Shown here piece by piece: positions 6,001 to 9,000 of a DNA stretch of 64,000 nt (position 1 is the first letter of the stretch; every line of letters starts with the position of its first letter). The position numbers were made by a program. Source of the stretch: an uncultured Methanosarcinales archaeon (GTDB lineage: Archaea > Nanobdellota > Nanobdellia > Woesearchaeales > BS150m-G63); assembly GCA_964630685.1 (NCBI GenBank), contig CAZVVW010000004.1, forward strand, positions 1 through 64,000. Direction: 5' to 3'.

Positions 6001-9000
6001 TTGTTAAAATACCTTCAGCAGTAGGGAATTTAATTTATTATTGTAAGGCAATAAATAAAAAGAAATGTAGTGATAAAGACTTGAGTTCTGCATTTGTTCA
6101 AGGACAATTAAAAAAACTACCAGTGTTGTTTTTGACAACAGGGGAATTAACTAAAAAAGCAAAAGAAATGCTAAAAAAAGAATTTAAATCAATGGTCATA
6201 AAAAGGGTGTCATAAATGGGAGTAGCACTAAAAGATTTAGTTGTAAGAAAAGACGTTTCTTTTGAAGAATTAAAAGATAAAATTCTTGTTGTTGATGCAT
6301 ATAATAATTTATACCAATATATTACCACAATTAGGCAAAGAGATGGATCTTTATTGACAGATTCAAAAGGAAATGTGACCTCACATCTTATTGGTTTGTT
6401 TTCTAGAACTACTAGTCTTATTCAAAAAGGATTAAAATTGGCCTTTGTTTTTGATGGTGAAGCCCCAGAAATGAAAAAAGAAGAAAGGGAAAGGAGAAAA
6501 GAAATAAAAATAGAAGCAGAAAAAAAATATCAAGAAGCAGAAAAAAAAGGAGATAAAGAAGAGATGAAAAAATATGCCCCTAGAACTTCTAAATTAACAC
6601 CTAAAATGGTTGAAGAAGCAAAGATGATGGTTAAGGCATTGGGTTTGCCAGTCATTCAAGCACCAAGTGAAGGGGAAGCACAGGCAGCAAAAATGGTCAA
6701 CAAAGGAGATGCGTTTGCAATAATTAGTCAAGATTATGATTCTTTATTATATGGTGCAGAAAGAGTGATCCAAAATTTGAGTGTTTCTACTAAAAGAAAA
6801 ATTAAAGGGTCTGTTGCGTATCAAACAATTAAACCCAGCATGATTGGTTTAAGTGAAAATTTAAACCACCTGGGGTTGGATCAAGATCAATTAATTGTTT
6901 TATCTATTTTAGTTGGAACAGATTATAATCTTGGAGGTGTAAAAGGTATTGGGCCTAAAACAGCACTTAAATTAGTTAAACAATATGGTTCTGATTTTGA
7001 TGATTTATTTAAAGAGTCAAAATGGGGAGACCATTTTAATTTTCCTTGGACAGACGTATATTATATTATAAAGAAAATGCCTTGGAAAAAAGATTATAAT
7101 TTGAATTGGGGTGAACCAAACGAACAAGAGCTTAGAAAATTATTGGTAGAAGAACACAATTTTTCAGAAGAAAGGTTTGAGAAAACAATTAAAAAATTAA
7201 TGAAAAATAAAGAATCGAGAAAACAAAAAGGTCTTGGAGATTTTTTTTAGATTTTTAAAACATATATTGGCGTGAGTTCTGTAATTATTTTAGCCATACC
7301 TAAATCTTCTGTTTTTTGAATGACTTCTCTTCCCCTATAAGTGAATTGGAGTTCTCTAACGTTTGAGATTATTTTTTTCCCTACCCCATTGGCCATTTCT
7401 ACCTCAAAAAATCTTTTATTGTTTGTTTCAAAAACATTATCTACAGTCAACGAATCTAAGAATTTATATCCCCCTCCATGTGGGAGGATGTTTGCATTTT
7501 TTAGTCTATTATAAACACCCATTTTTTTTGCTCTTTTCGTAAACCCCAGAGATTCTATTTGGTCTTTTGTGAAATTTTTGTTTCCGCGTACTAAATAAGA
7601 AGGGATATCTGCCCTAATAGATACTGGAAAAATTTGTTTTTTATTTTTTATTGGTTGGCAACCTAAAACTATTTCGTTGGGATTTAAGAGTCCTTGGTGG
7701 CAAATATTGGAAATAATTTTACCATTAAATAATGTGTTGAATGCTATTTCTCTTCTTTTATTTGCAAATTCTTCTGCGTATTTGTAAAATTTAAAATATT
7801 TTTTTAGTTCTTGTCCTTGAAGTGTATGTAAGGGCCCCCAAGGGGTTTTTATTCTGTTGCTCATTTCTAATAATTTTTTGCTATGGTTCCAATAAAGACC
7901 AAAACCCACATCACTATCCTCTTTTAATTCTGGACAACCAGCATGCATTATTGCAGCATATTTTGGAAAATTAGTTGAGTGATTATGTACTTCAAAAATA
8001 TCTATGAAATGGTTACCTTTATAAAAATCCCATTTTATTTTTGTGCCTTTTATTTCAATATTGCTTTTTTGTAATTCCTTTATTTTATTTATTAGTTCTT
8101 TTGGTTTAGGTACCTTATCTATGGATCCTACAAGCATACCGCAAGCATTAGGCAAAGAATCTAAGATTGTTAAGTTTTCTTTTCCCCCTCCCCAACTCAA
8201 TTTCCCTCCATAAGAAATACCAGATTCCCATCTTCCAATATTTCTTGTTACTGTTTCATCGGGAGTTGTGATAAAGGTGGCATTGGGTTCCATACCTAGG
8301 CCTTCTTGGACATAATGTATCTTGGCTAAGCCATACTTCATATTTTCCTGACTTAAGCGAGATGCAGCATCATTTATTCCTGTTGAGAAAATATGTTTTT
8401 TTGCTCTTTCTAAATTTATTTTCATTTTTTTATTAAATTTACAATTTTTAGTTTTTTTGCATAAGTAAAAACATAATTTAATACCATAAATAATCCAATA
8501 CCAATTACTACCGACATCACAGTCCAAAACAAGAGGTCTTTAGTACTGAAAGAAATAATTTCTCCAACAGCCCCATTATCAGTCATCTTTAATATTATTT
8601 TTGCGCCAGGCATAGCCCCCAAACCCACAATTGTAGCAATAGTTCCAATTGCAAAAATAACTTGAAGAATATTCATTTCTTTTTGCTCATTTTCATTATA
8701 AATAAAGCCTATCAAATCTAAGGTAGAACTTATGTATTCTTTAGTCATATTAAACTGGTCCTTTATATAATTATTTAACCCAACCATTTCTTTGAAATCA
8801 TTGAGTTTTAAATCTTCAAGAACATTTAAAATATTACATTCATCCAACCGTTCGTTTAAGAAATCATCTAATTGGTTGATTTTTTGAAGGGTAGAAATAA
8901 TCAATCTTTTTTTCTCTAACAATTCATCTATTATCAAAGGCAGATCCTTGTATGTTAATTTTTTTTGCTTTCTAAGTTTTTTAACTTCTTGCTCTATTTT

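Follow-up and report, generated by a model that had tools for sequence, protein, structure and literature searches.

The minus-strand gene for P0001, which lies in the window (the whole stretch of 64,000 nucleotides of archaeal DNA analyzed here), encodes a member of a deeply divergent protein family that, on the basis of its predicted structure, has the fold of the RNA ligase RtcB. The family is accompanied by an HD-domain hydrolase, a dedicated partner that was overlooked by the initial annotation of this DNA. Most likely, P0001 activates a phosphate in a GTP/Mn-dependent manner and has a non-canonical substrate. We favor, with moderate confidence, the reading that it is a catalytically competent, compact enzyme of the RtcB superfamily that would use RtcB-type chemistry with an acceptor or nucleophile unlike that of the tRNA-splicing ligase, and with the HD protein as an accessory. 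Because the catalytic core is kept, the parts that deal with the second strand are lost, and the family has its own HD partner, RtcB-type chemistry on another substrate is probable. The genes concerned are:

7247..8425, minus strand: RtcB-like protein P0001, compact, 392 aa (basis: ORF, homologues, model, and profile alignment)
8422..9531, minus strand: 369-aa membrane-protein ORF that matches no known family; it separates the HD gene from the RtcB-like gene, and its stop overlaps the RtcB-like start (ATGA)
9533..10192, minus strand: HD-domain phosphohydrolase, 219 aa, of the YpgQ/YedJ/Lin1889-like clade (basis: neighbor in 35/81 loci, and co-occurrence)

The ORF of P0001 is free of stops over its 392 codons, and its ATG at 8425, within the ATGA overlap, is also the start in the homologues. 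No family was found in Pfam at E<=1, NCBIfam gave no match, and there were 0 matches among PDB sequences at E<=10. The intact ORF and these empty searches bear out the initial annotation, which had described a real but unannotated gene. Its further statements were also reproduced: canonical RtcB (G000:C1:100845-102143, 485 residues) and archease (C1:98282-98695) are encoded in the same genome, both on C1, and a copy of P0001 that is 89% identical is present in the sister genome (locus L002).

Predicted fold and conserved core

The AlphaFold2 model of P0001 (pLDDT 92.7, pTM 0.91) was matched best in VIA-align by Thermus thermophilus RtcB (2epg_B, Z 23.8, rmsd 3.2 A, 298 aligned residues, model residues 4-392), with the next-best chain at Z 5.8. 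Foldseek against the PDB gave 16 matches at E<=1e-3, and 13/13 among the matches listed were RtcB (E 2e-9 to 8e-8). The earlier Foldseek result agrees in the number of matches and, among those listed, in their restriction to RtcB, but its next match (E 0.02, prob 0.04) was not recovered, as the first match beyond the threshold was now 2pgc (E 5.8e-3, prob 0.63). Identity between P0001 and RtcB in the structural matches was 11-14%. The Atlas feature search, when repeated, again placed 25 of 30 matches in the set carrying PF01139. The gap between the two Z values and the RtcB matches in Foldseek thus uphold the previous assignment to a deeply divergent, predicted RtcB-fold family.

At E<=1e-3, 846 homologues of P0001 were found among 3280 candidates, and 119 of the best 120 have no Pfam domain, the remaining one (P0081) carrying PF01139. 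These counts are the ones given before, although they had been attached to a cut-off of E<=1e-8. The PF01139 model itself did not match P0001 above its gathering score. It matched four of 46 further family members, one of which passes (28.8 vs 27 bits) and three of which score 13-15 bits, with all four matches covering the stretch from GNHF to H161. Family members are annotated as hypothetical everywhere. No description of the family was found in the literature on RtcB-like proteins, RtcB paralogues, and RNA repair; an RNA-repair survey, arCOG, or InterPro may already list it as RtcB-like. The RtcB review PMC10630183 contains no passage that mentions an HD domain or uses the word uncharacterized.

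The motifs of P0001 are P92-N93-A-C95-G96, G-N138-H139-F140-I-D142, H161, Y210, R225, H243-Q244, P315-H316-G-G-G319-Y320, Y363-R364, and K391, which is the penultimate residue. The core alignment of 30 members (A1) has 58 invariant columns and a mean column identity of 56%. Its invariant residues include N93, C95, G96, N138, H139, F140, H161, H243, Q244, P315, H316, G317, and G319, for which the invariance claimed earlier holds in this alignment; G318 is at least 90% conserved. In a wider alignment (A3, 30 sequences, down to 23% identity), only 13 columns remained invariant, namely G73, N93, C95, G96, N138, H139, F140, H161, H243, G255, P315, H316, and G319.

The family was compared with 21 canonical RtcBs by hhalign, with RtcB residues numbered as in the RtcB of the same genome. 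The profile-profile statistics taken alone were weak (E 0.0056 over 238 columns, probability 6.5%). The alignment paired N138/H139 with N209/H210, D142 with E213, H161 with H241, Y210 with Y288, R225 with R303, H243 with H333, H316 with H408, G319 with G411, Y363/R364 with Y455/K456, P386 with P479, and K391 with K484. According to PMC8668186, several of these RtcB residues are the His ligands of metal A and metal B, the Asn that contacts the GMP phosphate, and the guanylylated His, and the guanine is contacted by the Glu that follows GNHF and by the penultimate Lys (human Glu230 and Lys504).

These pairings support the retention of putative counterparts of the RtcB His metal ligands, the GMP-accepting His, and the guanine contacts, a Tyr being paired in addition to the penultimate Lys. 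The three His ligands (Pho His203, His234, and His329, Pho numbers being assigned by motif) would be H139, H161, and H243, all invariant in 30 diverse members. The nucleotidyl-accepting His (Pho His404) would be H316, as P315-H316-G-G-G319 pairs with H408-G-A-G411 and both H316 and G319 are invariant. The guanine-contact counterparts D142 and K391 are at least 90% conserved in the core family. Because both vary in the wider family, the specificity for GTP is uncertain.

The claim that the RtcB metal and GMP residues are kept therefore stands for the His ligands and the GMP-accepting His, by hhalign and invariance, whereas for the Cys it rests on motif and order. C95-G96 is invariant and occurs in the same order as in RtcB, but it was aligned with the RtcB Cys (Pho Cys98) only under a relaxed hhalign setting (E 0.25), and the default setting on the N-terminal parts alone left the Cys motifs unaligned. 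From motif and order only, we infer that C95 may be the bridging Cys metal ligand. The Asp ligand of RtcB (Pho Asp95) sits three residues before the Cys, while the family has the invariant N93 two residues before it; D89 is only 90% conserved in the core alignment and variable in the wider one. No Asp counterpart of this metal ligand is apparent in the P0001 family. Its apparent absence and the lack of conservation of several RtcB arginines are what a non-catalytic RtcB-fold pseudoenzyme might display. We consider such a pseudoenzyme extremely improbable, because invariance across the wider family coincides exactly with the motifs predicted to hold the metals and the nucleotidyl-His, which is the signature of selection on catalysis.

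Positions equivalent to the RNA-strand site of RtcB

In RtcB, the 5'-OH strand is gripped at its first two phosphates by Pho Arg238 (Eco Arg189) and is also contacted by Arg190 and Gln194 (PMC8051266). By hhalign, the equivalent of Pho Arg238, R245, aligned with P165, four residues past H161, in a column occupied by Pro, Ser, or Gly in the family, and R412, the Arg after HGxG, aligned with Y320. The stretch between the Cys and GNHF, which holds Pho Arg190 and Gln194 in RtcB, is ~60 residues shorter in the family and was left unaligned; in this unaligned stretch, no conserved Arg or Gln is visible ahead of W132-D133. The two replacements and the missing ~60 residues suggest an acceptor or nucleophile other than the one used by the tRNA-splicing ligase. 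The initial annotation had proposed an RtcB-like end-joining or capping enzyme; with both Pho Arg238 and the post-HGxG Arg replaced, ordinary end joining is less likely than it implied.

Compared with RtcB (PF01139; Pyrococcus horikoshii PH1602, T. thermophilus TTHA1785, E. coli RtcB, and human RTCB), the family would share the fold, as indicated by the Z of 23.8, the motif order N-x-C-G, G-N-H-F-x-[DE], His, His, P/x-H-G-x-G, the Tyr-[KR] and penultimate Lys near the C-terminus, and, if C95 is equivalent, an oxidation-prone active-site Cys. It differs in length (392 residues vs 485 in the same genome), in the absence of a PF01139 match in P0001, in HGGGY in place of HGAGR, and in Pro in place of Pho Arg238. 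The HRKG motif of RtcB has no counterpart in the family by hhalign. Moreover, the family has its own HD partner and is not always accompanied by archease.

Fold and core as in RtcB are also what would be expected if P0001 were a second, redundant ligase for tRNA splicing or RNA repair, joining 3'-phosphate and 5'-OH ends like canonical RtcB. Several gene contexts point in this direction. The gene for P0001 lies in the window near those for RNase Z, tRNA-splicing endonuclease, and Trm5; in three Woesearchaeota loci (L003, L004, and L005), the family gene is flanked by archease-HD and canonical RtcB, all on one strand; and 33 of 40 family genomes encode archease. We nevertheless regard redundancy as unlikely. 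The position of the clamp Arg (PMC8051266) holds Pro, Ser, or Gly, a Tyr replaces the Arg of HGAGR, the tRNA-processing neighbors of the window are common only to the sister locus L002, and the Planctomycetota members lack archease. Canonical RtcB is present in 36 of the 40 family genomes, and this near-universal coexistence argues against plain redundancy. For the same reason, the family would act beside canonical RtcB and not as its replacement. No tRNA genes were found within the window, and an Rfam search of window positions 1-20000 and of eight representative loci returned nothing except one tRNA in L076.

The HD-domain partner and the proposed reaction

The HD partner matched PF01966 at 46.7 bits (cut-off 22) and keeps the H...HD...D metal motif. 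In an alignment of 29 sequences, its mean column identity was 52%, and the invariant residues include H34, H69-D70, H82, H114, D132, and D134. Among PDB sequences, it matched Lin1889 (3b57, E 8e-10), 2pq7, 3djb, YpgQ (5dqv, E 5.5e-7), and YedJ (3gw7). The gene is a neighbor of the family gene in 35 of 81 loci, archaeal as well as bacterial, and is the sole widely recurring neighbor; Pfam scans of 47 + 38 neighbor proteins gave no other recurrent partner. With orthologues defined by a score of at least 190 bits, 21 of 40 family genomes have the HD protein. It is missing from the other 19 and therefore cannot be essential to the chemistry. Of 200 genomes from the window's phylum that lack the family, none has an orthologue, the top score being 98 bits; of 151 Asgard genomes, 13 have one, and all 13 are among the 57 with the family. 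Thus, in the genomes searched, they occur only where the RtcB-like gene is present, and relative to the YpgQ/YedJ/PenF group the partner is a distinct, tightly conserved subfamily. The 369-aa ORF between the two genes is missing at this position in L002 and is therefore probably a lineage-specific insertion into the operon and not a core part of it.

According to PMC11592144, YpgQ acts as a nucleotide pyrophosphohydrolase, and its relative PenF as a 5'-nucleotidase. That the nearest characterized relatives of the partner act on mononucleotides would suit a P0001 that activates the phosphate of a small molecule or protein, as a metabolic guanylyltransferase or phosphodiester synthase whose nucleotide by-product is recycled by the HD protein. 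The loss of the RtcB strand-binding side chains fits this as well, and so do several neighbors from phosphate and polyamine metabolism: pyruvoyl arginine decarboxylase (8 loci), a deoxyhypusine-synthase-like protein (7 loci; the one scored was a 1,9-bis(guanidino)-5-aza-nonane synthase at 594 bits), spermidine synthase (3), GDPD (4), calcineurin-like phosphoesterase (3), and phosphate transporters (2). These neighbors are, however, lineage-specific, being confined to one or two lineages, and only the HD gene recurs beyond them. Conservation as high as the mean column identity of 56% across domains is also seen more often in enzymes whose substrates are universal macromolecules. We therefore find a small-molecule or protein substrate possible but doubtful. 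The fusion search yielded a single longer form, with an APH-type kinase, that would agree with such a substrate; it comprises two member sequences in a single cluster on one contig and was set aside as a functional clue because it is too thin.

In the preferred reading, RtcB-type chemistry on another substrate, C95, H139, H161, and H243 would bind two Mn2+-type ions, with N93 at the place of the RtcB Asp, and D142, Y363, and the penultimate K391 would recognize the guanine. GMP would be passed to a phosphate monoester, giving an X-pp-G intermediate that a hydroxyl nucleophile may resolve. The leading candidate reactions would be specialized capping or repair of nucleic-acid 3'-phosphate ends, or joining on one particular substrate. 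The HD accessory might make the end ready, in the manner of a cyclic phosphodiesterase or phosphatase for instance, or it might strip GMP or the ppG cap. More tentatively, P0001 and the HD protein could form a writer/eraser or activate-and-resolve pair that works through a His-GMP intermediate on a target other than spliced tRNA ends; examples would be a phosphorylated metabolite, a protein, and a single kind of RNA end that receives a ppG cap.

To our knowledge, no enzyme class other than RtcB joins 3'-phosphate ends directly, and only one function of the RtcB fold has been known so far. If true, the writer/eraser pair would include the first enzyme of this fold to work outside RNA ligation. 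Among the RtcB paralogues of Myxococcus xanthus (RtcB1-3), which are said to be ordinary PF01139 members of normal length, RtcB3 reportedly caps 5'-phosphate ends. RtcB-fold enzymes beside the main RtcB can differ in end specificity and favor capping over joining, a precedent set by these paralogues and cited in PMC10630183. The P0001 family appears to be a second, compact branch of this fold, with strong selection at the catalytic positions, a rewiring of the places where RtcB holds its RNA, and a dedicated hydrolase, and it therefore points to an unrecognized nucleotide-dependent phosphate-activation reaction. P0001 is small and models confidently, and its shortened scaffold might also serve as a tool enzyme.

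Distribution of the family

The family spans archaea and a bacterial clade. The initial annotation had called it archaeal, but 32 of the 81 rows of the tree belong to bacteria and make up one side of a branch with good support. The family is rare in the window's own phylum, being found in 0/200 other genomes, and occurs in 57 of 151 Asgard genomes (~38% of the sample) and in 9 of 79 Atribacterota genomes. It turns up often in Lokiarchaeia and Odinarchaeia, among them the cultured Promethearchaeum syntrophicum and Lokiarchaeum ossiferum.

Such patchy occurrence, the ~50% identity between bacterial and archaeal members, the nesting of one bacterial row (L033) within the Lokiarchaeial clade, and the insertion of an unrelated membrane-protein ORF into the window operon could all reflect a horizontally spread defense or conflict pair, in which P0001 and the HD protein would repair or modify RNA after toxin or phage attack. 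This is very unlikely. PADLOC gave no hits for P0001, the HD partner, or the inserted ORF, its sole row being a chance-level Cas10 HD match (E 0.006), and searches of IMG/VR viral contigs, of plasmids, and of phages returned no relative. The neighbors are housekeeping genes, and the tree largely tracks taxonomy, with 25 label changes vs 53 for shuffled labels.

Among sequencing runs, the DNA of the window was found in marine/seawater metagenomes of two studies, with no RNA run listed. The genomes that bear the family, those of several bacterial phyla included, belong mostly to groups that we take to be anaerobes of sediments and the subsurface.

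The compact RtcB-like gene and its predicted fold

The gene of the compact RtcB-like protein P0001 is preceded in the window by two further genes on the same strand:

7247-8425, reverse strand, P0001, RtcB-like gene, open frame of 392 codons
8422-9531, reverse strand, 369-codon ORF without known family, separating the HD gene from the RtcB-like gene
9533-10192, reverse strand, window copy of the HD partner, a YpgQ/YedJ-like HD phosphohydrolase gene

A longer, TTG-started version of the P0001 frame extends to 8527. In the homologue alignment, P0001 homologues start at the ATG at 8425, which shares bases with the stop codon of the preceding ORF in an ATGA overlap. 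Searches with P0001 gave no match in Pfam (E ≤ 1) or NCBIfam, and none among PDB sequences (E ≤ 10). Homologues at E ≤ 1e-3 numbered 846; 119 of the best 120 were without a Pfam domain, and one carried PF01139, the Pfam RtcB model. Among 1.84 billion cluster representatives, the family profile matched 342 at E ≤ 1e-3, of which 155 reached E ≤ 1e-30. Because this total is small, canonical RtcB apparently lies outside its matches at E ≤ 1e-3 (best 150 of 342 listed).

The AlphaFold2 model of P0001, with a 30-sequence alignment as input, had a pLDDT of 92.7 and a pTM of 0.91. Foldseek comparison with the PDB gave 16 matches at E ≤ 1e-3, and all 13 of those listed were RtcB (human, zebrafish, P. 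horikoshii, or T. thermophilus proteins); the first match beyond this set had an E of 5.8e-3. An independent all-against-representatives structural search aligned the model with T. thermophilus RtcB at Z 23.8 (rmsd 3.2 Å, 298 residues, covering model residues 4 to 392), with the runner-up chain at Z 5.8. PF01139 matched 4 of 46 further family members, in the same stretch each time, one of them above the curated cut-off. When the family profile was compared with a canonical profile of 21 RtcBs from family-holding genomes, 238 columns aligned at E 0.0056, with a probability of only 6.5%. The modelled structure shows an RtcB fold for the family, and the sequence evidence agrees with this match.

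Active-site residues and the strand-binding region

Residues of the family paired by profile-profile alignment with those of the canonical RtcB of the window's genome (own-genome RtcB)
Family; own-genome RtcB
N138-H139; N209-H210
D142; E213
H161; H241
Y210; Y288
R225; R303
H243; H333
H316-G-G-G319; H408-G-A-G411
Y363-R364; Y455-K456
P386; P479
K391; K484

According to the human RTCB structure report (PMC8668186), several of the paired residues have assigned roles: an Asn at the GMP phosphate, His residues that ligate metals A and B, and the guanylylated His; guanine is read by a Glu and the penultimate Lys, which are also among the pairs. We also used a wider alignment of 30 sequences, including a divergent superfamily branch of 360–380 residues with 23–35% identity to P0001. 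The sole columns invariant in all 30 were G73, N93, C95, G96, N138, H139, F140, H161, H243, G255, P315, H316, and G319; this limitation of the invariant columns means that selection bears on these motifs alone. The family Cys motif was not paired with the RtcB Cys in the profile alignment at default settings, and was paired only at E 0.25 with a relaxed setting. Therefore, the putative Cys equivalence rests on order, invariance, and global superposition. No Asp counterpart of the RtcB Asp metal ligand was found in the family, where N93 stands close by. Taken from these alignments, the nucleotidyl-transfer core is predicted to be intact in the family. 

In the complex of P. horikoshii RtcB with a 5'-OH strand, Asn202 contacts the 5'-OH, and Arg238 grips the first two phosphates, the second of which is also contacted by Arg190 and Gln194 (PMC8051266). 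These numbers were placed on the RtcB of the window's genome by motif and not by alignment of the P. horikoshii sequence. The Asn at the 5'-OH is conserved in the family, whereas Pro, Ser, or Gly stands where RtcB has Arg238 (four residues beyond H161). In place of the Arg of the RtcB HGAGR motif, the family has a Tyr that is invariant in the core-family alignment, and the RtcB HRKG motif has no counterpart in the profile alignment. Between the Cys and GNHF motifs the family is ~60 residues shorter than RtcB; this stretch carries Arg190 and Gln194 in RtcB, whereas no conserved Arg or Gln was seen there in the family. At the level of sequence, the strand-binding region is thus rewired relative to RtcB. 

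The HD partner gene and the co-occurring canonical RtcB

Neighbor clustering of 81 loci, based on crude ORF calls made for this analysis, gave one widely recurrent family, an HD-domain protein of ~220 residues (35/81 loci). In 27 of the 35, from archaea as well as bacteria, its gene immediately precedes the family gene. The intervening 369-codon ORF of the window starts one base after the HD stop; it had no Pfam, NCBIfam, or PADLOC match, and a pair of hydrophobic C-terminal segments was seen by eye. At the sister-genome locus (L002) the HD gene directly adjoins the family gene, and this ORF is absent at that position.

The HD proteins share 52% mean column identity, with invariant H34, H69-D70, H82, H114, D132, and D134, and their closest solved relatives are Lin1889, 2pq7, 3djb, YpgQ, and YedJ. 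PMC11592144 describes YpgQ as a nucleotide pyrophosphohydrolase, and PenF, which is related to it, as a 5'-nucleotidase. At a cut-off of at least 190 bits, HD orthologues were present in 21 of 40 family genomes, at times far from the family gene, and in 0 of 200 genomes from the window's phylum that lack the family (top score 98 bits vs 349 in the window). They occurred in 13 of 151 Asgard genomes, all 13 within the 57 holding the family; because the co-occurrence genomes are related to each other, all these counts are descriptive. Since, in the genomes searched, HD orthologues are confined to those with the family but occur in only 21 of 40 of these, the partner depends on the RtcB-like gene and not vice versa.

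In the window's genome (936 kb; completeness 96.6%), canonical RtcB and archease lie on a different contig. PF01139 was found in 36 and archease in 33 of 40 family-bearing genomes, and the four Planctomycetota genomes among them had RtcB without archease. Three Woesearchaeota loci (L003, L004, and L005) share the order archease, HD gene, family gene, canonical RtcB; the L003 genome is flagged unpublished, and L004 and L005 have a small membrane-protein ORF just before the family gene. The family thus has a dedicated HD partner and coexists with canonical RtcB.

Because of the RtcB fold, the intact core, the rewired strand region, the HD partner, and the coexistence with RtcB, we infer that P0001 is an enzyme dependent on GTP and Mn. 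It would be guanylylated at His316 and would activate a phosphate monoester, with a substrate or nucleophile other than spliced tRNA halves. The HD enzyme would prepare the end, or take off GMP or a ppG cap. As rival readings, all rated less likely, P0001 could be a plain redundant ligase, act on a small molecule or a protein, serve in defence, or be a pseudoenzyme.

Some canonical RtcB frames were ~985-1012 codons long (L005:6999-9950, G019:C64, G030:C209, G027:C16, G015:C27, and G028:C18). Within the L005 RtcB, Pfam identifies an intein splicing domain together with a LAGLIDADG domain; the PF01139 match of the other five falls in two pieces of one long frame, a pattern suggesting that inteins occupy the same site.

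Distribution and other neighbors

The family had initially been described as archaeal, which is too narrow. A one-genome-per-species scan found 190 relatives. Among the 80 retained are many from bacterial MAGs (Planctomycetota, Spirochaetota, Atribacterota, Aerophobetes, Clostridia, Chloroflexota, Bipolaricaulia, Zipacnadia, and Humimicrobiia), and also some from two cultured Asgard archaea, Promethearchaeum syntrophicum and Lokiarchaeum ossiferum, of which L. ossiferum has two copies. The 81-sequence tree has a branch with 97% support that separates 32 bacterial rows from the remaining 49; these 49 are all archaeal apart from L033, a Deferrimicrobium MAG placed with Lokiarchaeia. Phylum labels are clustered on the tree (25 changes vs 53 for shuffled labels). 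Several of the MAG labels seem mistaken. The family genes of four "uncultured Methanosarcinales archaeon" MAGs (L005, L013, L016, and L023), for instance, lie within the Woesearchaeota/Nanoarchaeota clade, and this label, inside a DPANN clade, is probably wrong.

Presence is patchy across the sampled groups: 57 of 151 Asgard genomes (some with a second divergent copy), 9 of 79 Atribacterota genomes, and 0 of 200 further genomes from the phylum to which the window belongs. Viral contigs, plasmids, and phages were also searched and yielded no relative.

The Asgard second copies (e.g., in G299, G374, G371, G342, G354, and G365) are much more divergent (~195-215 bits, ~405-425 aa) and stand alongside the main copy; a further group (120-160 bits, ~430-450 aa) occurs in some of the genomes that lack the main copy. 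The single fused form found, P0133 (743 aa; outside the window; two member sequences, one contig), joins an APH-type kinase domain (PF01636) at its N-terminus to a full-length family domain.

Neighbors other than the HD gene are lineage-specific. The arrangement around the window copy (3663-7250 and 11168-11989), with genes for RNase Z, the tRNA-splicing endonuclease (EndA), a 315-aa lysine-rich ORF without family, FEN1, and a Trm5/TYW2 methyltransferase, recurs only in the sister genome (L002). A pyruvoyl-dependent arginine decarboxylase and a deoxyhypusine-synthase-like gene adjoin the family gene in Planctomycetota and Lokiarchaeia (L029, L031, L034, L041, L067, L068, L078, and L079; also L021); the latter gene of L034 scores as 1,9-bis(guanidino)-5-aza-nonane synthase (594 bits, cut-off 500). 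Three Atribacterota loci have spermidine synthase upstream. Further neighbors are GDPD, a calcineurin-like phosphoesterase, phosphate transporters, and a protein resembling TIGR00375, the model of the endonuclease Q family. The last of these, a 412-415-aa protein with no Pfam match and a TIGR00375 score of 187 bits, under the cut-off of 326.6, lies directly downstream of the family gene in four Clostridia and Aerophobetes MAGs (L040, L046, L047, and L064). Two Actinomycetota-labelled MAGs have a HEAT/PBS-lyase repeat protein of ~270-300 aa directly upstream (L032:6968-7870 and L039:4923-5732).
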